A stretch of DNA of 64,000 bases from Candidatus Nomurabacteria bacterium (GCA_020632135.1 JACKGC010000001.1:180241-244240); one strand, 5' to 3'; shown: positions 1,065-35,698, counted from the first letter of the stretch. The notes: a model not told the origin generated them from the sequence alone. A program made the numbers and translations.

Positions 1065-1285
1065 TAACCCTGCTCACACGCGCGATCACTTTTTTCGCCA
1101 CTGACGTTTCTGGAGTGATTTTGAGCGAGCTATTTCAGCTACGTGGCAATGTAAGAAGCTTGAAGCAGTGCGATACCCTACCGGCTTCGAACGCTTACCG
1201 GATTTACCGGGGCGATGTTTCATTATTGGTAGTGTAGCAAAATGGCCGCGCGCCAAAGGCGCGCGGCCACTGCTATACTACATCC

Positions 1286-1897
1286 ATGAAACGCTTGCGG
1301 CTTTATATAGCACTCACTCTGGCGCTCGGCGTTGCTGGCTGGCTCTTCTGGCCCGAACCAGCCCCGCTCCTACCTACCACGGGTAGCACTATCGTGATAT
1401 TTGGCGACAGTTTAGCAGCCGGGGTCGGGGCGGCCGAGGGTGGCGATATCGCCTCCCGGCTCACCACCGCCCTCGGCCGCCCCATCTTGAACCTCGGAGT
1501 CCCCGGCGATACCACCGCTGATGGTCTCGCCCGAATTGAAGAACTCCTCGCCGCTGACCCGCAGGTTGTAATACTCCTTCTCGGCGGCAACGACGCTCTC
1601 AAGCAAGTCCCGGTCGAAGACATTTTCGCAAATCTTACGCGCATCATCACGCGCATCCAGGCAGTTGGCGCGGCAGTAATACTCGTGGGAGAACCAGGCG
1701 GCCTCTACGGCAACCGTTTCGAAAAGGAATACGAACGTCTCGCACGAACATATCGCACCTTCTATGTACCCAACATCCTCTCCGGACTCATTGGCCGCGC
1801 TGAATACATGAGCGATTACATTCACCCCAACGACGCCGGCTACCAAAAGGCCACCGAGCGCATTTTACCGGTGGTACAAGACGCGCTCGGTGTCTAA
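1286..1897 (+). CDS. SGNH/GDSL-family hydrolase with N-terminal signal/anchor
   Basis: Conserved blocks FGDSLAAG, LLLGGNDAL and IHPNDAGY. Hydrophobic N-terminus. Confidence 0.8.
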   Translation: MKRLRLYIALTLALGVAGWLFWPEPAPLLPTTGSTIVIFGDSLAAGVGAAEGGDIASRLTTALGRPILNLGVPGDTTADGLARIEELLAADPQVVILLLGGNDALKQVPVEDIFANLTRIITRIQAVGAAVILVGEPGGLYGNRFEKEYERLARTYRTFYVPNILSGLIGRAEYMSDYIHPNDAGYQKATERILPVVQDALGV

Positions 1898-2503
1898 TTA
1901 AGACTTCTTAGTGATCCGTAACCAAAAGTAAAGCGTGGTAGCAACCATGGCACCAAGCGTGTCCGCCAACATATCTTTCTGCGCATCCCAGATGTCTCCC
2001 TGGCTACCAAGATACGCAGCCCCCGCCTCCGGTGCAGCGCCTGCGGCGTAGATCCACTCAATGAGTTCGTACCCCATCGCGACCGTTGCGATCGCAAAGA
2101 TCGGGTACGTGTACAGCAAAAAACGATCAGTGACCAACCGCTTCACAGACAACCACTCAGCGATCGCAAACGCGTACAACCCGACACTAAAGTGTGCGAT
2201 CCGATCGAAGTGGTTGCGTTCAAACCCAAAGAAGTCAGTGACGTACTCAAACGGCACTTGTGCGAAGGTCCAGTGTCCACCGATCGTGTGCAGGTATATG
2301 AGCACAAACATGAGTACGTACGCTGTGCTAGAAAAGCGTACGCCTCTGGCATACAAGCCAACTATGGCAAGAACAATGATCCAGACCGTCAAATTTTCCA
2401 CAAACCACGTTGGTCGATCGACCGGATCAAAGGCGAGTACTGTAAATAGAACAATGTAGCCTGCCAGTAGCCACTGCAAGCAAGTATTTTGGATCAATCT
2501 CAT
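1898..2503 (-). CDS. DUF2238/YjdF-like polytopic membrane protein
   Basis: 201-aa ORF with about 6 hydrophobic helices. HTIGGHWTF and NHFDRIAHF segments resemble the YjdF family (from memory). Confidence 0.55.
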   Translation of the reverse strand: MRLIQNTCLQWLLAGYIVLFTVLAFDPVDRPTWFVENLTVWIIVLAIVGLYARGVRFSSTAYVLMFVLIYLHTIGGHWTFAQVPFEYVTDFFGFERNHFDRIAHFSVGLYAFAIAEWLSVKRLVTDRFLLYTYPIFAIATVAMGYELIEWIYAAGAAPEAGAAYLGSQGDIWDAQKDMLADTLGAMVATTLYFWLRITKKS

Positions 2504-2523
2504 ATGAAAAATTATACAGCACT

Positions 2524-2550
2524 AAAAAAGCGCGACCCGAAGGGTCGCGC
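2524..2550 (-). terminator. intrinsic terminator (GCGCGACCC-GAA-GGGTCGCGC, U-tract on minus strand)
   Basis: 9-bp GC stem. The A6 run on the plus strand gives a U6 tail on the minus strand, downstream of the regulator gene. Confidence 0.7.
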
Positions 2551-2599
2551 GCAACTCGCTACACAGCAGCCACACAAAGAACAACAGGATCAACGGCCA

Positions 2600-3289
2600 T
2601 CACACTTCCTGCATCGACTCATCGGTTGCAAGCATGTACCCAAAATCGCGACTGTACCTGATCAATCGCTTCCCTACCACCGGATCGATCTTTTTCAGGC
2701 GGCTACGAATGCGACACATATACGTCCGCATCACCCCCTCCGGATCAACACTGCTTGCATTAAAGAAGTGTCTGACACTGGCCTTTGACACCGACTTACC
2801 TTGATATTCGGCAAGCTTGGCCAAAATGGAAAACTCTTTAGGGGTGAACGACACTTTCTTTTGATACATTCTCGCCTCACGGCGTCTAAGATCAACTTCG
2901 AGCGGACCGGCGTATATGATACGCTGCAGCATTGCCTCACGGTGACGCGTTCGAGCTAAAAAGACCGCCGCGATCTCTTGCGGGTCAAGGCGGTCGGAGA
3001 CCGCGTCATCAAACCCATCTTCGATCCGAGCGATGCGACCAAAGTGAAAACTATGAGCAGGCACCACGGCGATCAACTGATGTTCCAACGCCACTTCACG
3101 AGCTCGCAAGACGAACTCCGTGTTCGCATACGGAAACAAGACCGCTCCCAACTGATGCTTGCCATATCGCGCATCGTCGTGGAGCATCTTGATCGCCGCT
3201 CGTTCGCCAAGACAGTGCATGATCGGTACACCATGCGTTCGAAGCAGTTGCCCAATTTCTTGAGACATATCAACTAAAAGTAATTTCAC
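2600..3289 (-). CDS. OmpR/PhoB-type winged-helix regulator with degenerate (pseudo) receiver domain
   Basis: GTG at 3289 lies 6 nt after GGGAGA. The C-terminus has an OmpR-like wHTH (FTPKEFSILAKLAEYQGKSVSK...RTYMCRIRSRLKK). The receiver-like N-terminus lacks the phospho-acceptor Asp. The longer 277-aa ORF would overlap the neighbouring gene. Confidence 0.7.
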   Translation of the reverse strand: MKLLLVDMSQEIGQLLRTHGVPIMHCLGERAAIKMLHDDARYGKHQLGAVLFPYANTEFVLRAREVALEHQLIAVVPAHSFHFGRIARIEDGFDDAVSDRLDPQEIAAVFLARTRHREAMLQRIIYAGPLEVDLRRREARMYQKKVSFTPKEFSILAKLAEYQGKSVSKASVRHFFNASSVDPEGVMRTYMCRIRSRLKKIDPVVGKRLIRYSRDFGYMLATDESMQEV

Positions 3290-3393
3290 GTGCGTCTCCC
3301 GTTTCTGCACAGAACAAACCGCCGCAATGCTACATAACAAGAGGCGGTGAGTCAACTGGTAGGCGGCGCGGAGCCCGAAGGGCTCCCCGCCGC

Positions 3394-3912
3394 CTACCGA
3401 CGCAATACGAATCGCAGCTCCTTCTCTGCCCACTCCTTCGCATATGCCACGCCAATGCGTGGCGTGCTCTCAATTTGCTCTGACGAAACCATCGTCTCCC
3501 CCTCTTCGACCCAGAGTCCGACTTTCTTCCCAACCGACTGACCATTGAGCGTGCGCGTAATACCAAGCGCCTTAGTGAGCTTGCCCGGCCCATTCCACTT
3601 CCCCACGCCGCGAATGAGTACGGCCGCCGGGTACCCAGCCTCACCGGTCACAATATTCAACATGTCGTACATGCCATACACCAAGTACATATAGATCGTA
3701 CCCGGCCGCCCAAACATAACTTCAGTGCGCGCTGTCCGCCCCTTACTAGCGTGACTTGCCAAGTCGTGTGGACCAACGTACGCTTCTGTTTCAGTGATGA
3801 TGTGTCGCTCAATTTTCTCCCCCACTCGTACACAGAGTACGCAGCCTAAAAGCTCCCGTGCCACCACCTCAGCTGGTCGGTCAAAAAATGGGTTCTGGAG
3901 CATGCGCGTCAT
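3394..3912 (-). CDS. mpg: DNA-3-methyladenine glycosylase (Mpg/AAG family)
   Basis: ARELLGC, ITETEAYVGPHDLASHA and GTIYMYLVYGMYDMLNIV motifs are typical of the family. Confidence 0.85.
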   Translation of the reverse strand: MTRMLQNPFFDRPAEVVARELLGCVLCVRVGEKIERHIITETEAYVGPHDLASHASKGRTARTEVMFGRPGTIYMYLVYGMYDMLNIVTGEAGYPAAVLIRGVGKWNGPGKLTKALGITRTLNGQSVGKKVGLWVEEGETMVSSEQIESTPRIGVAYAKEWAEKELRFVLRR

Positions 3913-3993: not shown

Positions 3994-5187
3994 CTAAGAG
4001 GGATCAACAATATCCACCTGCGTCCGATATTCTTTAAGCGCCACCTTATCTGCCACCTGACTGAGCGCAGCCTTGAGCGTCTTATCAGCTTTTCCTACTA
4101 CGATCATTCCTCGTACTTTTTTCCCGTCTGGCTCTGCGAGTTTTTCACTGACCCAGCCCATGTAGTTGAGCACCTGCCCCACCACCTTATAACCAGACTC
4201 TGCTCGCTTGAGCTCTATCACCACAAAATCATCGTCCTTATCAATGGCGAGAATATCAATAATTCCTACATCGGTCGTATACTGCTGCCCTTCTGAACCA
4301 CCCTCATCTATGTAGATCCGAAGCTCTTCACCAAAATTAATTCGATCCCAGTTTTTAATAATGTATTCCTCCAAGTGGTTTTCGTACGCAAAGAAACCCG
4401 TGTTCGTTTCCATGCCTTCACCTACTACATCCTCCTCATCAGTCCGAGCTGGTACCGCCTCAGCTGCTTCTGCTGCGCGTTTAGCGTACACGCGGGCGCC
4501 AACATAGATCACATTTTGTGTCATCCAGCGCGAAGCAGCATCATCGAAGGAAAGGTGTTGCGTTAAACGTTTCTTCAGCGCCTGCACTGCTTCATTCCCA
4601 TCAATATGCTCACGTAGTGCTTCGATGTACGGCTGATACACTTCATACTGCTCGCCAGCAGTCAGACGTATCGGCATCTTGAATGAGTCATCAATATACT
4701 TCGCGAACACGCGCCATTCACTTGGCTTTAGTGGATTGTACTTTTCTGGGTATCGAAGTCCTAGTAACAGGCTTAAAAACCGGAGATTGACGTAACTATG
4801 TGCCTCTTCACCAAGCGTCTTATTACGCATCGCCATCAGATCATCAAAAGCGCTTTCTGCTTCTGCCAACCGATCTTGCACTAACAATGATTCATCAAAC
4901 AACCGCTGCAAAATAGTTCGCACTTCAGCTTGATGCTCTTCGGCAAAAATAAGAAGCATCTTCTTCGGGAAATACATACTTCCTGCCACTAAATTAGTAT
5001 TCAAAATGGCCTCATCAAGCATATTCACCAAGTCATCCGCCTCAAGGTCAAAATGCTTTTGAAAATGTTCCACCGCCTCAAACTTATACCCTTCTTCATC
5101 CTGTACATGATACGCCTCTCCCACCTCAGCAACATGCTTGAGAAATAGCTGCACCCACGATCGAATTTTTTGTTGGTCTATTTGCAT
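3994..5187 (-). CDS. NucS/DUF91-like PD-(D/E)xK nuclease domain fused to a long helical N-terminal domain
   Basis: C-terminal IDILAIDKDDDFVVIELKR...VVGQVLNYMGW matches the D...ExK NucS-type core. The N-terminal roughly 270 aa resemble the helical lead domains seen on McrB-like restriction proteins (from memory). Confidence 0.6.
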   Translation of the reverse strand: MQIDQQKIRSWVQLFLKHVAEVGEAYHVQDEEGYKFEAVEHFQKHFDLEADDLVNMLDEAILNTNLVAGSMYFPKKMLLIFAEEHQAEVRTILQRLFDESLLVQDRLAEAESAFDDLMAMRNKTLGEEAHSYVNLRFLSLLLGLRYPEKYNPLKPSEWRVFAKYIDDSFKMPIRLTAGEQYEVYQPYIEALREHIDGNEAVQALKKRLTQHLSFDDAASRWMTQNVIYVGARVYAKRAAEAAEAVPARTDEEDVVGEGMETNTGFFAYENHLEEYIIKNWDRINFGEELRIYIDEGGSEGQQYTTDVGIIDILAIDKDDDFVVIELKRAESGYKVVGQVLNYMGWVSEKLAEPDGKKVRGMIVVGKADKTLKAALSQVADKVALKEYRTQVDIVDPS

Positions 5188-5594
5188 AACTCACTTATAT
5201 CAGATTTACGATGTTAACAAACTAGACTAGGTGTGGTTTTTCATGTACCGATCAATTCTTTCTTCTCTTCAGTACTTTTGTTTCCTGCAAAATATACCTC
5301 GATACACAGCACCTCCACTGCTGTGCCATCAAACCCACACACCACTCGAGACAGTGCACCTTTTGCCGCTCGGCACATCATGCGCGAGCGTGTAGCACAC
5401 ACGCACGCACATACCGCACGACTTTCAACCTGGCAATTTTTAGAATTTTATGTCCCTGTTCCAACTTCTCGGAAGCACGTTCGCCATGAATATCTTGTAT
5501 TGATCGTGACACGGCACGCCACACACCTTGAAACCATCCTGTTTCGTAGTAGTGTATGGCCAGAACAGTTGATCCACACAAAGGAGTGCTCTAC

Positions 5595-5936
5595 GTGACC
5601 ACCTATCGCTACTTTCTCGAACCGATCGGCCCCGAAGCCAATGAGGCACTGGCCGACCTCCTCAACCAAATGGGCGAATCTGCCTCGTCGTGTGAACGAC
5701 GAAACGTCATGACCCAAAGGGGATTGGTCGAATTCATGTACGAAGTACCGCGGCACGCGACGGTGACCATCGCTGGCCACTCGGTACACAAAGGACACTT
5801 CCGAGCCTATGTGCAAGAAGGTGCTGGCAAGATCCGTCAGCACTCCTTGTACAAGAACATCGGCAAGCGAGTGTCTCGAGCAAAGGGGGTGCAAAGGGTT
5901 AAACGAGAGCTCAAAGAAAAAGCCAAACGGCGCTAG
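5595..5936 (+). CDS. hypothetical basic protein
   Basis: GTG at 5595 lies 8 nt after AAGGAG, and the terminator at 5966-5995 follows. A longer form starting at ATG 5556 is possible. Confidence 0.45.
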   Translation: MTTYRYFLEPIGPEANEALADLLNQMGESASSCERRNVMTQRGLVEFMYEVPRHATVTIAGHSVHKGHFRAYVQEGAGKIRQHSLYKNIGKRVSRAKGVQRVKRELKEKAKRR

Positions 5937-5965
5937 TTCTTACCAAATGCACTGATCCACATCCT

Positions 5966-5995
5966 AAAAGCCGGGCGCTTCGCGCCCGGCTTTTT
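5966..5995. terminator. bidirectional terminator AAAA-GCCGGGCGC-TTC-GCGCCCGGC-TTTTT
   Basis: 9-bp GC stem with a cUUCGg-type loop, an A-run upstream and a T-run downstream. Confidence 0.8.
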
Positions 5996-6098
5996 CATTC
6001 CTCCGCAACACCCAACTCCTCCTGCACCCTTTCACTTCGGGCCAGCCAAAAGCAGTACGACCAGGTCGGTCATCTTGCTTTTGTTTTTTGGATCACTC

Positions 6099-6398
6099 TC
6101 AGCAATGAGCAGCGTGAGTGCGGTGAGTGCTGCCGGGGTCAGTCGCTTTGTGTCGAGCCTGCGCGCCTTCCTTTTGAACTTGTAAGGATTCCTTACAAGT
6201 TGCCTTTTCATTGAGTTCTTTGTCTTTGTAAATATGTCTCAAATGAATAGTGACGTTTTGCGGAGTAACTCCAAATACTTGAGCCATATCCGCCTGCGTT
6301 GCCCACAAGGTCTCATTGTGAAAATCACCGCGCAGCTTCACCTGCCCTTTCGCTCCTTTGAATATTACGAGTTCCTTCTCCGTCCTTTTCTTGATCAT
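6099..6398 (-). pseudogene. truncated RhuM-like N-terminal fragment
   Basis: VIFKGAKGQVKLRGDFHNETLWATQADMAQVFGVTPQNVTIHLRHIYKDKELNE matches the RhuM N-terminus. Similarity ends after about 65 aa, whereas full-length members are about 300 aa. Confidence 0.5.
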
Positions 6399-6421
6399 CC
6401 GGCAAGTATAGCGAAACTGAA

Positions 6422-6438
6422 AAAGCCGGGCGCTTCAC
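6422..6438. repeat. half copy (left arm plus loop only) of the 5966-5995 terminator
   Basis: AAAAAGCCGGGCGCTTC is identical to the left half of the full hairpin. The right arm is missing. Confidence 0.8.
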
Positions 6439-6517
6439 CACAGGAGTACTTCCATTTTTACAGTCGAAGTTTCCTCCTTAAAAATTAGGTCGCACATCCG
6501 ACATTTCTATAACAGCC

Positions 6518-6874
6518 TCAGTCTTTCCAATTGAATTGATCAAGACTCTCGAGATACCCCTCTATTCTCTTCCTGTCCTCGTTTTCTTTAACCCCTTTAA
6601 AGTACAGCTCAATGTACATAAACGTAATAGTGTTTTCATGGTACGCATACACCACCCGAAGCGACCGATTCTTCAAAGCATGGCAAGCCAACCGTGCCTT
6701 TACCACCTGCACACACTCGTCACTGTGTATGATTGTGAAATTCTTTCCAATACCAGTCGGCGCAACAAGTAAGATCTGCTCAAATGCTTTAAGGTCGGCT
6801 GGGATAGACCGGTATTTTTTCGCCAACTTTTTCTTCTCCTTATCAAATTCTGACAGTGAATCAAAGCGACTCAT
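6518..6874 (-). CDS. RelE/ParE-superfamily-like toxin (TA module 1)
   Basis: 118 aa starting at MSRFDS. FDKEKKKLAKKY, VVKARLACHALKNRSLRVVYAY and FMYIELYFKGVKEN fit the RelE/ParE fold pattern. Overlaps the upstream antitoxin gene by 14 nt. Confidence 0.55.
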   Translation of the reverse strand: MSRFDSLSEFDKEKKKLAKKYRSIPADLKAFEQILLVAPTGIGKNFTIIHSDECVQVVKARLACHALKNRSLRVVYAYHENTITFMYIELYFKGVKENEDRKRIEGYLESLDQFNWKD

Positions 6875-7598
6875 ATTCTCGCTGCGAAGTCTCCTCCGGT
6901 CGGTAAAAAACATGTTCGTAATTCAACACTTCCCGGTCGGCTGCCACTTTCCATGGTGTGTCGATATGAGAGAGTTCAGACAATTCCTTCGCGCTTAAGT
7001 GTGCAAGACGTTTCACCTCATCATCAATGTGTTTTAGTTCCCTGCCAGACAACGCAGAGACGTCAGGTTCAGTTGTCGGGATGTACTTGGTTTGATCATA
7101 GCCAAAATGTTTGCTCTTGACCTCAACGATCTGCCCCGCTCGCTCCATTTCTTTCACGATCTTCGCAAATGAAACCGGAGTCGGGCCGTAGGTATTCTTG
7201 ATGTACATTGCGCCGATAAGCTGCTCTTCATACTTTTCGTAATAGTCAAAATCAATGAAGTACAACAATTTATACAGTGCGGTCTGACCGATGTTTGGTT
7301 TGGCTCCTACTTTGTTCAAAATATAGAGCAAGGTCTGCTTGAACTTCTCGACATGCTCACATGGGATCTTTCTGGGCTCCACCTCAGGCACCGCCTGCAC
7401 TTTTGTGTCGGTATGCTTCTCGACCCGCTCTCGTGACACTCTAAAAAGCTGCGACAGTATCGCCTTCTGGCCTTCCGTTGGCTTGCGTCGGCCTTTCTCA
7501 AGCTGAATGTAGGTGGGACGAGATATGTCCAAGGCCTGCGCAACATCAGCCTGCGACAGACCAAGCGCTTTGCGCTTAGTGTGGATCCACGTAGTCAT
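6861..7598 (-). CDS. XRE-HTH + Panacea/DUF4065 (SocA/PanA-like) antitoxin (TA module 1)
   Basis: N-terminal HTH (LGLSQADVAQALDISRPTYIQLEKG). Central ALYKLLYFIDFDYY...YGPTPVSF matches the DUF4065 core. Start taken at MTTWIHTKRK. Confidence 0.7.
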   Translation of the reverse strand: MTTWIHTKRKALGLSQADVAQALDISRPTYIQLEKGRRKPTEGQKAILSQLFRVSRERVEKHTDTKVQAVPEVEPRKIPCEHVEKFKQTLLYILNKVGAKPNIGQTALYKLLYFIDFDYYEKYEEQLIGAMYIKNTYGPTPVSFAKIVKEMERAGQIVEVKSKHFGYDQTKYIPTTEPDVSALSGRELKHIDDEVKRLAHLSAKELSELSHIDTPWKVAADREVLNYEHVFYRPEETSQREYESL

Positions 7599-7676
7599 AG
7601 ACTGAGTATGACACAGACACAACCGTTTTTCAATATTTACTGTATATGTTGTAAAAATGTAAACACAGAAGAACGA

Positions 7677-7709
7677 GTAAAAGCGCCACCCTTCGGGTGG
7701 CGCTTTTAC
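7677..7709. terminator. bidirectional terminator AAAAGCGCCACCC-TTCG-GGTGGCGCTTTT
   Basis: Perfect 9-bp GC stem with a UUCG loop and A/T runs on both sides. Confidence 0.75.
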
Positions 7710-7892
7710 TCGTACCTGCCTTCAACTCATACACTACGAATCTGACTGATGGCCTACCAACCCGCCCTTATCACATCTCCAATTTGATTTTGGCTTGACC
7801 GCGGCCTAGAGAGCTTCTTGATTTACGTTGCGTACGGAGACACTTAATGACTTGCGTCCAGCAAGATAAACTACACCACAAGAAATTCAATT

Positions 7893-7918
7893 AAACCGTG
7901 ACTGTCACGGTTTTTTTT
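7893..7918. terminator. hairpin ACCGTGA-CTG-TCACGGT followed by T8
   Basis: 7-bp stem with T8 on the plus strand. Lies just downstream of toxin 2 on the minus strand. Confidence 0.55.
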
Positions 7919-7928
7919 CACGGTTTTT

Positions 7929-8324
7929 CTAAGACACAAGATGTCTGTACTCTGGGTAGTGTCCAGCAATTAGTCGTTTCCACTCAGTGGTTTCATTGCG
8001 ACCAGGCAGATCATTCTTGTTATACACCAGCAAGATCCTTACCACTTTCTCTTCAACCAAGCAGACTGCTATACACCGATTACCCGAAGTTTTTGCGGAC
8101 ACACCACTCCCTACAACCGCAAACTCTGACTTAATGATTTGCACACCGTCGGTTTCACAAATGACATTTGCTCGTTTCTTTTCCAGCAAGTTATCGACGC
8201 GTTCATACATGGCCCGTATCGCATCTTCTGTAAGATCCCAGTTTTGCTTGTACTTTTTACGAAACTTTTTGATAAAGTGTCGCTCCGCAAAATCTTCAAT
8301 AACGACCGTATACAACCCGTGCAT
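7929..8324 (-). CDS. RelE/ParE-superfamily-like toxin (TA module 2)
   Basis: 131 aa. FIKKFRKKYKQN, SGNRCIAVCLVEEKVVRILLVYNKND pattern. Lies 5 nt downstream of the second Panacea antitoxin. Confidence 0.5.
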   Translation of the reverse strand: MHGLYTVVIEDFAERHFIKKFRKKYKQNWDLTEDAIRAMYERVDNLLEKKRANVICETDGVQIIKSEFAVVGSGVSAKTSGNRCIAVCLVEEKVVRILLVYNKNDLPGRNETTEWKRLIAGHYPEYRHLVS

Positions 8325-8329
8325 GAGAC

Positions 8330-9022
8330 TTAGAAGATATTATCTGGATCCTCTTGTGTAATGAGAGAATAAGGGATGATTTCGTTTTCATGACAAATGG
8401 CCCAAGGTAGCTGGTTGTGGGTAAAATTCACCAACTCACTACCTCGCTTTCCTTTCCAGTGACTAGAGATCTTGTGAATCAACTCCTCTTCCTCATTTGA
8501 AATGGCAGAAAACTTCTGTGCCTTGTTACTTGTGGATTCGTGGTAGGTATATGAAACCTTATCACCGTCATCCATTGTAGTGACTGTTATCTTCCCCTCC
8601 TCTTCTAATTCTAGGAGGGCTCGGAAATACATGTCCGGAACCGGACCGTATGGGAGGCGTCGGTACAACATACCGCTCATGCTTTCTAGATGATAGTAAA
8701 ACCATGCAAAGTCAGCCAAATATACGAGCTTGGCAAGTTTTGTGCGTCTGATCCCAGCTTTCCCACTGTCTCGTAAATACAACAAGATCATCTGTTTGTA
8801 TTTTTCAAAATTAGCCACCATACCAAGCTCGAGCTCTTCCATAGAAACACCGAGCACTCCAGAAAGTACATCAAACTCACTGACTGTTAGTTCACGACTT
8901 CCCTTCTCTACGGCAATGTAGGTGGGGCGTGACATGCCAAGCTTCTTGGCCACTTCGTCTTGAGTCAGCCCTCGAGCTTCACGCACATTTTTAATTGTTT
9001 GGCTATACTTTGTCTTAGTCAT
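8330..9022 (-). CDS. XRE-HTH + Panacea/DUF4065 antitoxin (TA module 2)
   Basis: HTH (RGLTQDEVAKKLGMSRPTYIAVEKG) plus TKLAKLVYLADFAWFYY...YGPVPDMY. Start taken at MTKTKYSQ (9022). Confidence 0.7.
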   Translation of the reverse strand: MTKTKYSQTIKNVREARGLTQDEVAKKLGMSRPTYIAVEKGSRELTVSEFDVLSGVLGVSMEELELGMVANFEKYKQMILLYLRDSGKAGIRRTKLAKLVYLADFAWFYYHLESMSGMLYRRLPYGPVPDMYFRALLELEEEGKITVTTMDDGDKVSYTYHESTSNKAQKFSAISNEEEELIHKISSHWKGKRGSELVNFTHNQLPWAICHENEIIPYSLITQEDPDNIF

Positions 9023-9038
9023 AAGACAAAGTATAGCC
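9001..9038. promoter_or_regulatory. 38-bp perfect palindrome spanning the -10 box and start codon of antitoxin 2
   Basis: GGCTATACTTTGTCTTA-GTCA-TAAGACAAAGTATAGCC. On the minus strand, TTGACA-N16-TATACT lies 8 nt before the ATG. Confidence 0.6.
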
Positions 9039-9235
9039 AAAATGTAAAGAATGTCAACTTCACAAGTATGGATATTTGACATCAAATATCCTACTGGGGT
9101 AAAATACCAAAGAAGGCGGGGCGCCTACGCGCCCCGCCTTCCCAAACAAACAGACCTAAGATCTGTTGCTCCTACTATAGCTGGTAGTACAAACAACAGC
9201 AAGGGTCATTTATCCGATAGCCTTGTTACGACAGT

Positions 9236-9442
9236 ATGTTCTACTACGTAAACAAAAACGCCCAGCCAACTTCGTACGATCATGAGGTGCACACCAAGAC
9301 TTGCTCTTGGCTCCCTGCCCCAGAAAATCGAATCTTTCTCGGCGACTTCAGCAGCTGTGCCGCAGCTGTCCGTGAAGCAAAGAAGCACTACTCCGACACC
9401 AACGGATGCTACTACTGCTCGAATCCGTGCCACACCACTTAA
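9236..9442 (+). CDS. small Cys/His-rich hypothetical protein
   Basis: 68 aa with HEVHTKTC...NGCYYCSNPCHTT. Followed by the terminator at 9458-9491. Confidence 0.5.
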   Translation: MFYYVNKNAQPTSYDHEVHTKTCSWLPAPENRIFLGDFSSCAAAVREAKKHYSDTNGCYYCSNPCHTT

Positions 9443-9457
9443 CCGTGTGACCATAGA

Positions 9458-9491
9458 CCAAAAAGACTGACCTGAAGGTCAGTCTTTTTGG
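9458..9491. terminator. bidirectional terminator CCAAAAAGACTGACC-TGAA-GGTCAGTCTTTTTGG
   Basis: 15-bp perfect stem between convergent genes. Confidence 0.8.
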
Positions 9492-9630
9492 TCTATTTTG
9501 TTGAGATCTTTTTTGTTGCTCACAAACTAATTCGAGATTAGCCTTGATGACCAAAATACTCTCGCAAATCAGCCTGCGAAATACACTGACCCTACCCGAC
9601 CTTCACAACATGCAATATACCTCTCAATAT

Positions 9631-12024
9631 TCACTTCAAAAATCCCAACTCGAATACTTGCGGTCGGATTTTGTCACTGAGTGTTCTGTAGGCTGTTTCA
9701 AATTCAGTAAACGATACCGGTGGCACGTCACCAGCATCATTACGTCGTTTAAGCGTATTTCGGATTTGGTACCAACCGACATCAGGACGATTCAACTTCA
9801 ACTCCTCCCGAACTGTATACGGATCGGTGTGTTTGAAATATTCGCTCCAAAGTTCGCGTCCACGCGCGAGCACCTCGGTTGCTTCGAGCGACCACTCCTT
9901 CTCTGCCATGTACCGCACCATAAAGTCACTCTCGAAGCGCTCGGGCGCACCGACCTGCTGCTCAGTAAACGGAATAAAGTGATTGACAATACTCCACTTC
10001 TTTTCATTCCACTCTAAATCATTGGCGCTCGCGGTAAGATTGCTGCTATTGAACAACATCCAGACCAGACAATCATTTTTGAACTCCTCTGTCAGCTCAT
10101 CACTTGGCTGCAAGAACTGATCGCGGTCGTTTTGCCAAGTTGGCTTAATGATGCGGCGGACAGTAAACAGCACTGCAATTTCTTCAAGATTATGCGTATT
10201 TATGTAATATCCACCACTTGCACCATATGCGCGAGAGGAAAGAATCCAAGTTCCGTTTGCGTGCTGCACGTCATTACCTAGTGCGGTCAAGTATGCAACA
10301 GCACCATCTGACCATCTTTTCTTATCATGTTTTAAAGTTGGAGAAACCGCATTTGTCAAAGGAATGACTTCTGTTTTGTTTGATTTTGGTTTTTCAACCC
10401 ATGCGTTGAGCATGTGCTTATTAGGCACGTTGACAAATATCTTGTTACCAATTGGGCGAGCCTCAAAATCTAGTACGCTTGTTTTAATTTCTTTAATTTG
10501 ACTTAGGTAACCATCACCATGACTAGTCTGCCATACTAAAAAACCTATAGGAAAGGTACCTTTAATACCATCAAAGGATCTGGCTGGCACAATAAAACCT
10601 CCAATATATTCTGAATCCCACTTTTTCCTAAATGCTTCAAAAAAGGGCGCATTTACATATTTTAGAGTGCTAAACATGGCTAATGTTGCGTGTGGAATCT
10701 CCTTAGAAATTCGTACCACAAATTGTGTAAACAGCTCTCTAGTGGCGGAACCATAGCCATCCATCATAGTTTCAGCAACTCGTGTTTTTGCAACACCCTT
10801 CTTATTTTGTGCCCTTTCAGTACTTGAAATGTTATCTGCATTCATCGCTTCTGCATACGGCGGATTGATTAGTACTAAAATCTTCTTGCCACTTTTAATC
10901 GCGCGGCGAAGCGATTCGGGAATCTTATTGGTGAGACTATAGTCAATCTGCCCGTCGTCGGTAACATCATCATTGAGGTAATCATACTGGAATCGCTCCG
11001 CTGCAACACAAGTTTTGGTCGCTTTCATGACGTCAATATCAGCTTGATCAAGCGTGCTCATGTATATATTACGGTGATTACTATGCTTTATCTCCAAATT
11101 CCCTACACCACAACACATATCCCACACTAAATATTCGTCCTGCCACCCTTCACCCAGCGTTTCTGTTAGTTTGTCATAGGCTGCGTCCACCACATGTAGC
11201 GGTGTGTAGTATGCACCTTTAAAACTTCGCTCATCAAGTGGAATAAGGCTATCGCGACGTTCAAGCAAATAGTTTCGATATTCTTCTTTCGGTGGCTTGT
11301 GGTAAATAGCCCAGAAACGTCGATAACCTTCCTTGTTACCAAGCTCGTAGAGCTTTCCGCCAAGCGAGAACACTGGCGTTCCGTCTTTATGCAACAATTC
11401 CGCCGGCATATCCTTTACCGAGGACACTGTGCCGTCATGCATAATATCCGCGAAGAAAAGGAGCGCGTAGTCTTCTTCTGGCACATCAGCCAATTCACGA
11501 CCAATCATTTCTACCCAACGGTCGAAAACTTGCTTCAGGTTGCTTGGTGTAATCTGCGTGCGAATAATCTCACCCTGTTTAATGGCGTTTTTTACCGCAT
11601 CAATAAACTCTTGCTCGTGTGTCTTTATATTAAAGGACACCATATAGGTACCAATGTAGGCCGACACCGCAGCAAGCGCTTCTGGAGTAACATCACTCGC
11701 TGATTTTCCCCATTTAATATCCTTACGTTCCAAAATCGGCATCGCATCAATCGTTTTCATGATGGCCGCTTTTCCTACATCAATAACTGCCAAGAATGGT
11801 GGTAATTCTTCACCATGATCAAGCCACTCTTTTGCATAATGGAGTAACTGTGTGAACATCTCAAAACTGGTGTGAGTATGACCAGCTTTAGCCTCAAACC
11901 AAATTTCTTTAGTTTGAATGTCAATCAAACCTTTTTGATACTTCTTGAGGCCAAGTGCCTTTATGTAGAGATCCTTCACATCTTCCTCGCTCGAGGCAGT
12001 CTGTAGAGATTCATAGAGTGACAT
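9631..12024 (-). CDS. fused PD-ExK endonuclease / N6-adenine DNA methyltransferase (MmeI-like type IIG/IIL candidate)
   Basis: N-terminal LIDIQTKEIWFEAK (D-x8-ExK, as in MmeI). Methyltransferase motif I VWDMCCGVGNLE and motif IV LINPPYAEA. Long C-terminal region is a possible target-recognition domain. Start taken at MSLYESLQ (12024). Confidence 0.65.
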   Translation of the reverse strand: MSLYESLQTASSEEDVKDLYIKALGLKKYQKGLIDIQTKEIWFEAKAGHTHTSFEMFTQLLHYAKEWLDHGEELPPFLAVIDVGKAAIMKTIDAMPILERKDIKWGKSASDVTPEALAAVSAYIGTYMVSFNIKTHEQEFIDAVKNAIKQGEIIRTQITPSNLKQVFDRWVEMIGRELADVPEEDYALLFFADIMHDGTVSSVKDMPAELLHKDGTPVFSLGGKLYELGNKEGYRRFWAIYHKPPKEEYRNYLLERRDSLIPLDERSFKGAYYTPLHVVDAAYDKLTETLGEGWQDEYLVWDMCCGVGNLEIKHSNHRNIYMSTLDQADIDVMKATKTCVAAERFQYDYLNDDVTDDGQIDYSLTNKIPESLRRAIKSGKKILVLINPPYAEAMNADNISSTERAQNKKGVAKTRVAETMMDGYGSATRELFTQFVVRISKEIPHATLAMFSTLKYVNAPFFEAFRKKWDSEYIGGFIVPARSFDGIKGTFPIGFLVWQTSHGDGYLSQIKEIKTSVLDFEARPIGNKIFVNVPNKHMLNAWVEKPKSNKTEVIPLTNAVSPTLKHDKKRWSDGAVAYLTALGNDVQHANGTWILSSRAYGASGGYYINTHNLEEIAVLFTVRRIIKPTWQNDRDQFLQPSDELTEEFKNDCLVWMLFNSSNLTASANDLEWNEKKWSIVNHFIPFTEQQVGAPERFESDFMVRYMAEKEWSLEATEVLARGRELWSEYFKHTDPYTVREELKLNRPDVGWYQIRNTLKRRNDAGDVPPVSFTEFETAYRTLSDKIRPQVFELGFLK

Positions 12025-12035
12025 AGTGAAAAGAG

Positions 12036-12060
12036 TAGCACTTTCAAAGGTTTTATCAAT
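12036..12060 (-). promoter_or_regulatory. promoter/operator copy A (upstream of the RM fusion gene)
   Basis: Minus strand reads ATTGAT-AAAACCTTTGAAAGTGC-TACTCT then 7 nt to the ATG. 22 nt are identical to copy B. Confidence 0.55.
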
Positions 12061-12878
12061 CAATTTAGGTCTTTGGTGAAACGACACTGCAGGAAGGAGC
12101 TACATCCCCAAAATTTGCCTCGTTTTCCGTTTCGTACTACTAACTCATGTCCACAACGCGGACAAATTTCTGGCGCTTTTGTTTCATCGGCTTGAACAGG
12201 TTTTGTCATTGCTTCAAGGTCACTATCGAGCTTGTGTTCCAAATCATCGCCGTCCAACAAAATGACGTTGTTATCATTCGCAAATGTTTTGGCATCTTTG
12301 GTGAACCTACCTGTCGTAATCACAAAACCACCGACTGCACCTTCAGCCGCCATAACTCCATACAATTCCCGAACCACCTTTACTGACACCTTCCAAGTTT
12401 TATAGTGTTTACATTGGACCAAGTACAAACCCCCATCCTTGTGGAGCTTTATATCAAAACCACCATCTGCTCCCCCACCTCCAACCAGTTCAGTACCGTA
12501 CCCCTGCTTCTTAAACCACTCGGAAAGAAGAAACTCGAAATCCTGCCAACTGAGCTTATTTAGAGTTTCTCTAACTCCGTTCGAGGAGAGGCTCCGAAAC
12601 ATAAAGGCAGCCTTTCCTCGTTTGAAGAGATTTAAAATACCTCCTAGTAACATTGCAAGGGGTAAAAAATATTTCAAGAAAATACCAAAAAACATTTTAA
12701 AGATCAGCACTGGCAGACTTTCAACACTAAACGTTTCGTTCAAACTAAATGGGACCAGAAAAAATAAGAGCAGGGCCACGGTAATAGAAAGCCACCACGG
12801 TAATAAGGAACTTAAATCGACTAACTCGGAAAATAATTCTTCAGCAGGAGAGACTCTTGTGTTTCGGCGTCTAGACAT
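12060..12878 (-). CDS. membrane-anchored Mrr-cat restriction endonuclease with C-terminal topoisomerase-type zinc ribbon
   Basis: Three N-terminal TM helices. Mrr_cat core (FEFLLSEWFKKQGY...GGADGGFDIKL...LVQCKHY). C-terminal CPRCGHELVVRNGKRGKFWGCSSFLQCRFT. Confidence 0.7.
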   Translation of the reverse strand: MSRRRNTRVSPAEELFSELVDLSSLLPWWLSITVALLLFFLVPFSLNETFSVESLPVLIFKMFFGIFLKYFLPLAMLLGGILNLFKRGKAAFMFRSLSSNGVRETLNKLSWQDFEFLLSEWFKKQGYGTELVGGGGADGGFDIKLHKDGGLYLVQCKHYKTWKVSVKVVRELYGVMAAEGAVGGFVITTGRFTKDAKTFANDNNVILLDGDDLEHKLDSDLEAMTKPVQADETKAPEICPRCGHELVVRNGKRGKFWGCSSFLQCRFTKDLN

Positions 12879-12888
12879 CTGTGAAGGT

Positions 12889-12914
12889 TAGCACTTTCAA
12901 AGGTTTTATCCAAT
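12889..12914 (-). promoter_or_regulatory. promoter/operator copy B (upstream of the Mrr-like gene)
   Basis: Minus strand reads TTGGAT-AAAACCTTTGAAAGTGC-TAACCT then 6 nt to the ATG. Confidence 0.55.
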
Positions 12915-13045
12915 TGGCCACGAGCGGAGCGCAGGCGGAGACAAGCGGACATTGCTGTATTTTGCAAAATTATTTATACGTTCGGAGCTCTGGAGAAAGC
13001 CGATAAACGTTCCTTTGGTCTCATGGGAGTCCCTCCCCAACCGCA

Positions 13046-13082
13046 CACCGGATCGCGGTCCGTTCGCGTCCGGTGGTTTTTT
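13046..13082 (+). terminator. plus-strand terminator CACCGGA-(16 nt)-TCCGGTG followed by a T-run
   Basis: 7-bp stem followed by GTTTTTTATTTTTT. No plus-strand gene lies upstream. Confidence 0.5.
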
Positions 13083-13115
13083 ATTTTTTGTTATGTGGGG
13101 GTGAAGTGGGGATGT

Positions 13116-13147
13116 AAAGGCCGGCGTGAAGCGCCGGCCTTTTTTGT
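13116..13147. terminator. bidirectional terminator AAAGGCCGGCG-TGAA-GCGCCGGCCTTTTTT
   Basis: GC stem with A/T flanks, downstream of the 13169-14080 gene. Confidence 0.75.
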
Positions 13148-13168
13148 GTCTAATCCTCTACCAATTTG

Positions 13169-33615: not shown

Positions 33616-34176
33616 TCAGCCATCGATGCCGAAGTCGTCGCCGCTAGTGTCACCTACCGCCATACCACGTTGTGCAGTACGACCATTGATGAGGTTCATA
33701 GTCGGAATGGCCATCCAGTTGAAAATGAGCAGCAACAGAAATTGTGTGTTGCTGAACACCTCACTCAGCCAATCAAACAAACCAAAGGCGAGTCCTTCCG
33801 CGAGCATGCCGGCACCAGTCAGGAAGTTGAGCATGACACCGATCGCGAACATGGCGGTAACAATACCTGCTACTACATACATTCGACTAACCTCGACGCT
33901 GTTGTTCTTACCAGGCCAGGAGACTCTGCCCGCTTCAGTCAACAATGCTGCAACGATCATGATCGTGAAGACATCTGACAGTGAAACGGAGTAGTTGCCC
34001 CAGGTTACGGCGCTGTACCACGTGAGTCCACCGATGGCGGTCGTGAAGGCCGACGTGAGCAGGTAGAACATCAGCACATAACCGAAGGCCGGTGCACGTC
34101 TGGCGAAACTTTGAAATTTGCTCGGCCGAACGACATCGGCTGCCACTGCTGCCCCACCATAACGAGACGGATCCAT
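33616..34176 (-). CDS. 4-5 TM membrane protein of unknown family (P2)
   Basis: AAGGAG lies 6 nt before the ATG. 186 aa, hydrophobic. Confidence 0.75.
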   Translation of the reverse strand: MDPSRYGGAAVAADVVRPSKFQSFARRAPAFGYVLMFYLLTSAFTTAIGGLTWYSAVTWGNYSVSLSDVFTIMIVAALLTEAGRVSWPGKNNSVEVSRMYVVAGIVTAMFAIGVMLNFLTGAGMLAEGLAFGLFDWLSEVFSNTQFLLLLIFNWMAIPTMNLINGRTAQRGMAVGDTSGDDFGIDG

Positions 34177-34339
34177 GAGCTTCTCCTTTCTATATCTATG
34201 TAAGTACTAAAAGAACTTCCAAATGGAAGCCTGGTGGTAAATTACACGAAATTGTATTTTGTCAATATTAAAATTGCTTTTTTCTAAAAATATGTTATAG
34301 TCACCATCTAGTTCTTCAACAACATCTTTAGGAGGGAAC

Positions 34340-35152
34340 ATGTTGAGAATACTCACTTCCCTTCTCGAGGGAATAGTACTCTGGCTACTGCGGCCTCGTA
34401 TTCTACTTTTACTCGCTCTGTTCTTAGTGATCGCTGGATTGACCTGGGCGTACATTGATCTCCCTGTACTGGGGTTGGCACTTAAGAAATTTGTGCTCAA
34501 TACGCTGCCCAAATGGTACCAAACGTCTGCAAAATTTCTGGTCAAACTCTGGCCAAAGGTCACCCAGGCACTCATGAATAGCGCAGTGAAAAAGTACCTG
34601 CGTGCATTCGTCGTCTTTATCAGCCTGCACCTACTCACCAAGAAGCGACGTCTGCAGTTACGGGCCTATAAGGGTCGCACGATCTCCTTTCTGCATCGTA
34701 CTGCCATCGAACGTCCCAAAGCCTGGTGGTCTGGCCTGAGCAGGAGTGGCCGCATCATGGCTGTGGCACTGCTCATCACCACGATAGTTTCAGTGCCAAG
34801 CCTGCATGTGTTGGGCCTGCTACTGATCCCGCTCGCACTCGTAAAACAAGCAGTAACGTTTGTTGCTCGCTCAGTTGTTACAAAGTTGGGAGCTGGTGCT
34901 GTGGTGGAGCGAATTCAACGAAGCCTTTTGACTCTCGTCACTCGCCTCATCCCGAAGCATATGTTAGTCCGATATAAATGGAACTACCTCCGCGGAATGG
35001 TCCTGCGCCGAAGACGCATTCGAGCGAGAGCAACTGCACTGAAGTTGAAGACAGCAGAGACGCTCAGAGAGAAGAAACGACTACGAGCAGAACTCTGCCA
35101 ACGGAAGGCCGCGGTCAAACAAGCCAAAGGCGCTGTCGAAAAGACAGAGTAA
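34340..35152 (+). CDS. 4-TM membrane protein with Arg/Lys-rich coiled C-terminus (P3)
   Basis: AGGAGG lies 5 nt before the ATG. 270 aa. Confidence 0.75.
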   Translation: MLRILTSLLEGIVLWLLRPRILLLLALFLVIAGLTWAYIDLPVLGLALKKFVLNTLPKWYQTSAKFLVKLWPKVTQALMNSAVKKYLRAFVVFISLHLLTKKRRLQLRAYKGRTISFLHRTAIERPKAWWSGLSRSGRIMAVALLITTIVSVPSLHVLGLLLIPLALVKQAVTFVARSVVTKLGAGAVVERIQRSLLTLVTRLIPKHMLVRYKWNYLRGMVLRRRRIRARATALKLKTAETLREKKRLRAELCQRKAAVKQAKGAVEKTE

Positions 35153-35239
35153 TACCCGAGCAACACGCTCGGGTATATTTTTGACTTTTTTGTATATTAT
35201 TGTATTATCATAAAAGACGTATCAGAAGAGGAAACGCCC

Positions 35240-35698
35240 ATGGGCAAAAATGATGCTGCGACCAGCAAGCCGTATCGGAAGAACACACGTAACATTCTCG
35301 TTACCCTTTTCTTAGTGACACTCGTAGCAGTCGGAGTGCAATACCGTTTGGAACATCCACCAGCAGACACCACTCACTTATACGATGGCATTCTCACAGA
35401 CGTTCGACTCAAACACGAGATCCTGTTGCAGAATGTGCTGCCGGGTGAGATCATTCGGATCTCGCTTCAAGGGAAGCCACAGCTCTACATGGCCGTAGTC
35501 GAAAACACAAGACGAACACTAAAAGGTCGCTTGTACGGCGAAAGGACTGTTCCGAAGGATAAGCTTGCAGCAGTGCCGTATGATTGGCTGCTCAAAAATC
35601 CCTACCTTGCTGCAGACATCAACAACATTGAGCAAGAAGACTCACAATCTCTGTTCAACAGTATCGTATTGCACGCTAAGGGTCAGCCCGATCAATAG
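35240..35698 (+). CDS. N-terminally anchored protein of unknown family (P4)
   Basis: GAGGAA lies 8 nt before the ATG. One TM helix (ILVTLFLVTLVAVGV). 152 aa. Confidence 0.7.
   Translation: MGKNDAATSKPYRKNTRNILVTLFLVTLVAVGVQYRLEHPPADTTHLYDGILTDVRLKHEILLQNVLPGEIIRISLQGKPQLYMAVVENTRRTLKGRLYGERTVPKDKLAAVPYDWLLKNPYLAADINNIEQEDSQSLFNSIVLHAKGQPDQ

Follow-up and report, generated by a model that had tools for sequence, protein, structure and literature searches.

A predicted single-chain restriction-modification enzyme and an Mrr-type nuclease preceded by copies of one promoter-like repeat in a Nomurabacteria genome

In a 64,000-nucleotide (nt) stretch of the genome of a Candidatus Nomurabacteria bacterium (GCA_020632135.1, JACKGC010000001.1:180241-244240), which we refer to as the window, two genes, here called A and B, lie head to tail on the minus strand, and the same 22-nt sequence precedes each of them. 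Our preferred reading, to which we assign a probability of roughly 60%, is that B encodes a self-contained restriction-modification enzyme, that A encodes an independent nuclease, and that the repeat is a copied B promoter. The two genes and the promoter-like modules in front of them are located as follows, with positions counted from the first letter of the window.

12060 to 12878, minus strand: gene A, 272 amino acids (aa); N-terminal membrane segment, Mrr-type catalytic domain, C-terminal topoisomerase-type zinc ribbon.
9631 to 12024, minus strand: gene B, 797 aa; predicted single-chain restriction-modification enzyme of an unannotated family.
12885 to 12913, minus strand: promoter-like module of A, containing the repeat copy at 12889-12910.
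12032 to 12060, minus strand: promoter-like module of B, containing the repeat copy at 12036-12057 and overlapping the A stop codon (12060-12062).

The open reading frame (ORF) called mechanically for B has 818 aa and begins at a GTG at position 12087, inside A. Since the 120 relatives listed are 787-854 aa long with 100% query cover, and the starts that were located begin with MSLY or MTLY, we take the ATG at 12024 as the true start, which gives the protein of 797 aa. It carries LIDIQTKEIWFEAK, VWDMCCGVGNLE and NPPY. Across a diverse alignment of 49 relatives, 25-65% identical, the residues E13, D35, E44 and K46 (the PD-ExK set) are invariant, as are G270 and T274 (FYTP), D302 and G306 (motif I) and N387 and P388 (NPPY). 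The motifs follow each other in the order YYTP, DMCCGVGN and NPPY, after which comes a variable module: within the close clade, the mean pairwise column identity of residues 501-625 is 0.49, against 0.73-0.78 in the other four regions of B. Judged by analogy, these residues sit exactly where single-chain enzymes carry the recognition domain. On this basis the following parts of B are distinguished.

11575 to 12024, minus strand: predicted PD-(D/E)xK nuclease domain (residues 1-150), from invariant residues and modelled topology.
11986 to 11988 (E13), 11920 to 11922 (D35), 11893 to 11895 (E44) and 11887 to 11889 (K46), minus strand: predicted catalytic residues.
10525 to 11229, minus strand: predicted gamma-class N6-adenine DNA methyltransferase (residues 266-500), with YYTP, VWDMCCGVGN and NPPY.
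10150 to 10524, minus strand: hypervariable module (residues 501-625), in the position of a target-recognition domain, from its variability and from fold matches to M.TaqI, CamA and M.BseCI-type enzymes.

We modelled B with AlphaFold2 using the diverse alignment, and obtained a predicted local distance difference test score (pLDDT) of 88 and a predicted TM-score (pTM) of 0.76; most of the N-terminal 120 residues have a pLDDT above 90. An earlier run with 30 close relatives had given a pLDDT of 71, with the active-site region below 50, and was replaced by this model. When the model was compared with the PDB by Foldseek, the top matches were DrdV (Type IIL, 1.6e-11), BpuSI (Type IIG, 1e-10) and MmeI (8.7e-9), followed by LlaBIII/LlaGI (Type ISP), M.BseCI, BsaXI, BrxX/PglX, CamA and M.TaqI; as far as models can tell, the set is a coherent one. 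Elements in the N-terminal region run alpha-beta-beta-beta-alpha-beta-beta-alpha (pLDDT >90), where strand 2 carries D35 and strand 3 carries E44-x-K46. In the nuclease domain of MmeI the order is alpha-beta-beta-beta-alpha...beta-beta-alpha, with D70, E80 and K82 (PMC2731913), and the order of elements in B equals that of MmeI minus one helix. Structural modelling supports the nuclease motif proposed in the first-pass annotation of the window: the topology is PD-ExK-like, pLDDT exceeds 90, and D35, E44 and K46 lie on strands 2-3. Among viral models, the 739-aa 'N-6 DNA Methylase' of Siphoviridae sp. ctnpt50 (BFVD model A0A8S5SDC8) has a whole-protein fold in common with B (E 5.5e-27, TM-score 0.57-0.61, 16% identity).

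Sequence searches classify B far less readily. In Pfam, NCBIfam and PADLOC no model reaches its threshold: Pfam gives a weak sub-threshold N6_Mtase match (E 0.01), NCBIfam none, and PADLOC weak generic methyltransferase matches. PHROGs gave nothing decisive. Searches of PDB sequences by phmmer and with a close-family profile found nothing meaningful, phmmer neither MmeI nor DrdV; a profile of the diverse family reached DrdV (3e-5) and M.BseCI (2e-3), over FYTP/motif I and NPPY. In the wider superfamily, one distant relative of B carries a TIR domain (2.6e-11) and another matches the 'large polyvalent protein' domain LPD3, which hints at defence-type fusions. A literature search found no paper describing this protein family. 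The first-pass annotation had described B as an MmeI-like fused endonuclease-methyltransferase of roughly 800 aa. The fusion is supported by D-x8-ExK, motif I and NPPY in 797 aa and by a fold of IIG/IIL architecture; the likeness to MmeI holds for fold and architecture (MmeI 8.7e-9) and not for sequence membership, as there is no MmeI Pfam domain and no match to a PADLOC Type IIG model. Profile comparison, which that annotation had proposed as a check, places A in Mrr_cat and leaves B above threshold in no Pfam, NCBIfam or PADLOC model.

The family of B is very large. It comprises more than 6315 clusters at 90% identity, and at 50% identity 1910 clusters with E <= 0.001, of which 598 have E <= 1e-30. 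The best 120 clusters are 66-79% identical to B over the full length, and every source-named one among them is called 'hypothetical protein'. B occurs in at least 590 stretches of GTDB species genomes from many phyla; the locus counts given below refer to the best 80 of these. At 64-78% identity, these 80 loci come from Patescibacteria, Bacteroidota, Alpha-, Beta- and Gammaproteobacteria, Ignavibacteria, Leptospiraceae and Helicobacteraceae. Clustering of the neighbouring ORFs found no neighbour family in more than 4 of the 80 loci, and larger 'conserved neighbour' clusters were rejected as shadow ORFs inside B in other frames. B is thus a solitary gene with no conserved partner in 80 of 80 loci, and its two closest relatives (79% and 78%; L086 and L087) stand alone among housekeeping genes. 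A tblastn search of the INPHARED phage genomes found no match to B. Isolates that carry close relatives of B include Kaistella gelatinilytica G5-32 and Limnohabitans sp. Rim47. Relatives at 59-63% identity, labelled hypothetical in RefSeq, are encoded on plasmids of about 10 kilobases (kb) from Acinetobacter (sp. SH20PTE14, plasmid pYUSHP14-3) and Fluviibacter (F. phosphoraccumulans SHINM1), at the following positions.

L114 (NZ_CP090070.1), 6846 to 9242: plasmid relative of B.
L115 (NZ_LC523991.1), 1106 to 3493: plasmid relative of B.

The alternative that survives best, which we nevertheless consider unlikely, is that B acts as an orphan or regulatory methyltransferase, its PD-ExK domain having another task such as DNA binding or repair, or that it is the effector of some other defence and does not cut unmethylated sites. 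For restriction enzymes, 64-79% is an unusually high identity between phyla; no profile library assigns the protein to a class, B often lies among housekeeping genes and not in defence islands, and the fold matches also include BrxX/PglX and CamA. However, the nuclease catalytic residues are invariant down to 25% identity, which argues for a working active site, and a hypervariable recognition module is the signature of a diversifying target specificity. The best fold matches are moreover bifunctional enzymes, and the TIR domain on a distant relative fits a role in defence.

Gene A belongs to a different and well-populated family. Its product matches Pfam Mrr_cat (PF04471) with 8e-31 over aa 106-215 and Zn_ribbon_Top1 with 1.6e-11, and the catalytic domain is of the PD-(D/E)xK type with the D...QxK signature. 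At E <= 0.001 the family counts at least 3653 relatives; of the 120 listed, nearly all combine the same Mrr_cat and Zn_ribbon_Top1 domains, and their source names are 'restriction system protein' or 'restriction endonuclease'. Relatives are also found in phage protein families (phrog_33422, 2.6e-30). Two hydrophobic blocks, aa 22-46 and aa 54-86, are flanked on either side by positive charges; they would form two to three membrane helices, and an even number fits better with positive charges at both ends. Of the earlier description of this gene, the Mrr catalytic domain and the zinc ribbon therefore hold fully and the three transmembrane helices in part. In E. coli Mrr, it is the N-terminal winged-helix domain that senses the DNA. 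As no Mrr_N winged-helix domain is among the Pfam matches of A at E <= 0.1, the earlier label of a modification-dependent nuclease is not justified.

A and B are rarely found together. With A as the tblastn query, none of the 80 loci showed a match within 6 kb of B, although positive controls did yield A; A is absent at the two closest B loci, and no B lies beside the closest relatives of A (56-59% identity). Identical A and B proteins in the same island occur in three Logan contigs (runs SRR14234113, SRR14234115 and SRR14234116). One other A-B adjacency was found, on Logan contig L084 (8512-11756), where a relative of A (53%) lies directly upstream of a relative of B (71%), separated by a gap of 32 nt and beside ATP synthase genes. 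The upstream regions of these two genes have no common repeat; a TG-n-TAGTGT box lies 7 nt before the ATG of B, and TAAATT lies 6 nt before that of A. Relatives of A in L111 and L112 have a similar downstream neighbour (zf_Tbcl_2) and no B, and this suggests that in L084 B was inserted next to a resident A. An apparent co-occurrence of A and B on a contig of 45,399 base pairs (bp) (P0148 / L044) was rejected, because two different contigs of equal length were involved. The pairing of A and B is occasional and not obligatory.

The window contains exactly two copies of the 22-mer GATAAAACCTTTGAAAGTGCTA, on the minus strand at 12036-12057 and 12889-12910. With up to three mismatches allowed there are still two copies, and none in 100 shuffles. 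In a repeat search of the window the match grows to 27 nt (93% identity), and the similarity of the upstream regions of A and B is limited to about 45 nt ending at ATGTC. The two copies flank gene A precisely, 853 bp apart. The identity of the sequences before both genes, reported earlier, is therefore exact, with outer coordinates (12060 and 12914) that had been set 3-4 nt too far and include the -35 hexamers.

In the A module, TTGGAT (12913-12908) is followed by a 17-nt spacer, TG (12893-12892), C and TAACCT (12890-12885), and after another 6 nt by the ATG at 12878. The B module consists of ATTGAT/TTGATA (12060-12054), a 16-17-nt spacer, TG (12040-12039), C and TACTCT (12037-12032), with 7 nt to the ATG at 12024. 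The repeat covers the -35 region, the spacer, the TG and the -10 box as far as its second base; both copies run into a TGnTAnnnT box located 6-7 nt 5' of the ATG, and the -35 region of B overlies the stop codon of A. The geometry proposed before, with -35, spacer and -10 box and an ATG 6-7 nt after the latter, is thus real.

This layout is not confined to A and B. Among the first in-frame ATGs in the window, 21 of 67 (31%) are preceded by a TANNNT sequence whose end lies 5-8 nt upstream, most often 6-7 nt; for internal ATGs the share is 3.0%, and for all ATGs it is 5.2% (Fisher p = 6.5e-11). A good number of the boxes are strong (TATACT, TATGAT, TATAGT), and in some cases the box comes right after the terminator of the previous gene. 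The layout is seen, for example, at the gene starts 1286, 3912, 15528, 17677, 18121, 23092, 29351 and 59356. Shine-Dalgarno-like motifs are not enriched in the window (12% versus 8%). Among relatives of B, a -10/ATG box of this kind is present at 8 of 13 loci in genomes of the Candidate Phyla Radiation (CPR), versus 6 of 63 in other phyla. The leaderless-type layout is a genome-wide trait of the organism and not special to the A-B locus; leaderless mRNAs themselves are plausible. The leaderless look noted earlier for the two genes hence stands as a layout, and the suggestion that it sets them apart does not, as 31% of gene starts share it. In our literature search, no paper turned up that describes leaderless mRNAs in CPR bacteria.

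A core of TGCTA..CTTTTC..ATG upstream of B is common to the window, to the two closest relatives and to a further locus, L001. The copy proximal to A lacks the CTCTTTTC core that relatives of B share. Because the core is common to B relatives, the copy proximal to B is probably the ancestral one and the copy proximal to A derived. The repeat itself is absent upstream of the relatives of B and at L084, and is private to this lineage. Its 19-nt core gave 19 unrelated single matches in metagenomes, none beside the A or B families elsewhere, and a relaxed core search of the window gave 10 matches where 5 were expected, which is not significant. Most likely, the repeat represents a local promoter duplication rather than a shared control switch.

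The first-pass annotation had instead interpreted the repeat as an operator shared by both genes, through which a trans-acting, C-protein-like regulator would coordinate a modification-dependent Mrr nuclease with a coupled modification-generating enzyme. Its appeal lies in 22 nt that are 100% identical while the flanks diverge, in the position of the repeat over the spacer and the -35 region, where repressors frequently bind, in the same gene order at the diverged contig L084, and in the two helix-turn-helix (HTH) proteins encoded in the surrounding island. We regard it as very unlikely. A is missing from 80 of 80 B loci and from the closest relatives of B, B is missing beside the closest relatives of A, and at L084 no sequence is common to the upstream regions of the two genes. 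The mini-palindrome CTTTGAAAG within the repeat has arms of only 4 bp, the relaxed core matches are at chance level, and the core found in metagenomes consists of unrelated single matches. No small HTH controller ORF is present at 12879-13168 or between A and B, and the HTH proteins of the island are Panacea fusions of 251-253 aa, antitoxin-like and each with its own partner. Nor does A have an Mrr_N sensor domain. A shared operator would have been a new wiring of two nucleases; the evidence does not support it, nor coordinated control, nor a C-protein-like factor, for which there is no gene at the locus and no copy of the core beside either family elsewhere.

Least probable of all is that the repeats are recombination scars from the placement of A upstream of B, by a long target duplication or a microhomology junction, without promoter function and with transcription from elsewhere: although they flank A precisely and their hexamers are poor by the sigma-70 consensus, a GC-rich terminator hairpin about 200 nt upstream of A means that A needs a promoter in the interval, and a TG-n-TAnnnT box 6-7 nt before the ATG fits the pattern seen at 31% of genes and in relatives of B from other CPR genomes.

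Several points weigh against the combination of a self-contained enzyme B, an independent nuclease A and a copied B promoter. Searched on its own against Pfam and PDB sequences, the N-terminal domain of B gives noise only and no nuclease family, so its assignment to the nucleases is based on motif and topology. Overall, the model reaches only low TM-scores against DrdV, BpuSI and MmeI (0.25-0.3), a consequence of differing domain orientation. Compared with the sigma-70 consensus, the hexamers are weak (in A 3/6 and 3/6, in B 5/6 and 3/6), and a sigma-70 consensus scan listed neither repeat promoter. The search for further copies of the 22-mer covered 64 kb of a 651-kb contig. Perfect identity over 22 nt is also expected of a conserved operator; it is compatible with a protein binding to the 22-mer, as it is with promoter duplication. 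Finally, the second adjacency at L084 hints at some non-random link between A and B.

For the locus as we read it, with a self-contained B and a copied promoter, we propose the following mechanism. The C-terminal recognition module of B would read a short DNA motif; in the host's own sites the gamma-class methyltransferase would place an N6-methyl group on adenine, and the N-terminal PD-ExK domain would cut unmethylated incoming DNA. The B family would move between phyla as a solitary gene. A would be an independent, membrane-anchored Mrr-type nuclease of another widespread family, located by chance just upstream in an acquired island. The organism appears to start many transcripts at the ATG and to make hardly any use of Shine-Dalgarno sites, and each gene would therefore need its own promoter a few bases before the start codon. 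The repeat of 22-27 nt would be a local copy of the B promoter that now also drives A, so each gene would yield a leaderless mRNA, with B perhaps also read through from A. We speculate that copying a working promoter is a simple route to a promoter for a second gene in a unit.

A and B lie at the edge of a low-GC island (GC content 41-51%, mostly 41-47%, versus about 53-56% in the flanks), bordered by host genes for ClpS and a methylpurine glycosylase. The island is foreign, acquired DNA in the tiny Nomurabacteria genome. Its extent, the hairpins near the two genes and a further group of genes in the window are listed here.

3994 to 12950 (approximate), minus strand: low-GC island, with a 397-aa NucS_C-like protein, two HTH-Panacea pairs, B and A.
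9453 to 9496, strand not assigned: hairpin 3' of B, a perfect 21-nt inverted repeat with a 2-nt loop, very stable.
13116 to 13142, strand not assigned: GC-rich hairpin that ends the upstream host gene.
33616 to 34176 (minus strand), 34340 to 35152 (plus strand) and 35240 to 35698 (plus strand): genes with Shine-Dalgarno-like sites (AGGAG, AGGAG and GAGG, respectively).

The hairpin at 9453-9496 is likely the end of the A-B transcription unit and could terminate transcription in both directions; no terminator was found between A and B. Because the GC-rich hairpin ends the upstream host gene, the start of the A transcript is confined to the region that this hairpin bounds. Between 6518 and 9085 the island contains two tandem modules, each with an HTH-plus-SocA/Panacea protein (251 and 253 aa) followed by a 131-aa ORF without a Pfam match; in the second module the two ORFs overlap by about 50 nt. 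By their sequences, the modules look like Panacea-type toxin-antitoxin pairs. At the far edge (3994-5187), a 397-aa protein has a C-terminal NucS_C / YhcG-like PD-(D/E)xK domain, with no domain assignment for its N-terminal 300 aa. Elsewhere in the window, the three adjacent genes at 33616-35698 have Shine-Dalgarno-like sites in an otherwise Shine-Dalgarno-poor genome, and may represent another acquired segment.

The analysis places a large 'hypothetical' family, with reasonable confidence, among the single-chain restriction-modification enzymes, and its variable module may hold many DNA specificities. An identity of 64-79% across distant phyla marks B as an unusually mobile and constrained gene, and the locus would illustrate concretely how acquired genes obtain their own ATG-abutting promoter in a genome dependent on leaderless transcripts, here by copying. 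A more far-reaching hypothesis, which we put forward tentatively and at somewhat less than even odds, is that the B family is an unrecognised, very large family of compact single-chain restriction-modification enzymes, with a Type IIL-like mechanism and no sequence relationship to MmeI, one subfamily of which has recently swept across phyla (Patescibacteria, Bacteroidota, Proteobacteria, Ignavibacteria, Leptospiraceae and others) as a naked single gene in which mainly the recognition module changed. If this is true, the family could supply many new specificities and would testify to unusually intense gene exchange between phyla in fresh water and groundwater, and in CPR hosts B would be refitted with leaderless promoters that can be copied to neighbouring genes.

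Compared with known systems, the repeat resembles C-protein operators in being a short repeat that overlaps the promoters of restriction genes. C-protein operators are, however, a pair of inverted-repeat boxes at one promoter, whereas here a direct repeat stands at two genes, no C gene is present, the internal palindrome has arms of just 4 bp, and the repeat is not kept at the other A-B pair. With the Type IV enzyme Mrr of E. coli, A shares the Mrr_cat PD-(D/E)xK domain (8e-31). Unlike Mrr, it has a membrane segment and a zinc ribbon instead of Mrr_N, and nothing points to a dependence on modified DNA.

Like the Type IIG enzymes BpuSI and Eco57I, B has nuclease, methyltransferase and recognition parts fused in one chain, and BpuSI is its second-best fold match (1e-10). 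Eco57I and BpuSI come with separate companion methyltransferases, whereas B stands alone in 80 of 80 loci. Pfam finds no Eco57I domain in B and a weak one in a single distant relative.

Type IIL enzymes cut about 20 nt from an asymmetric site and methylate only one strand. MmeI has 919 aa and the DrdV chain 1029 aa, compared with the 797 aa of B. Membership of the MmeI family is defined by whole-length similarity to MmeI with a BLAST E value below 1e-20 (PMC2731913), or else by matches to the Pfam MmeI domains; in Pfam at E <= 0.1, with phmmer and with the family profile, B shows no such similarity. In contrast to Type IIL enzymes, it has neither an MmeI Pfam domain nor a phmmer match to MmeI, reaches DrdV by its methyltransferase motifs only (3e-5), and belongs to a family with a much higher conservation across phyla. 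The nuclease motif of MmeI is D-x9-ExK (PMC2731913), and that of B is D-x8-ExK. As in Type IIL systems, no separate methyltransferase gene adjoins B at the 80 loci, the family has a variable recognition module within an otherwise conserved protein, and DrdV and MmeI are among the best fold matches. From its model, B looks like a Type IIL/IIG-like single-chain restriction-modification enzyme, with the parts that MmeI and DrdV have: an N-terminal PD-ExK domain, a helical linker, a gamma-class NPPY methyltransferase, a recognition domain and a C-terminal helical region.

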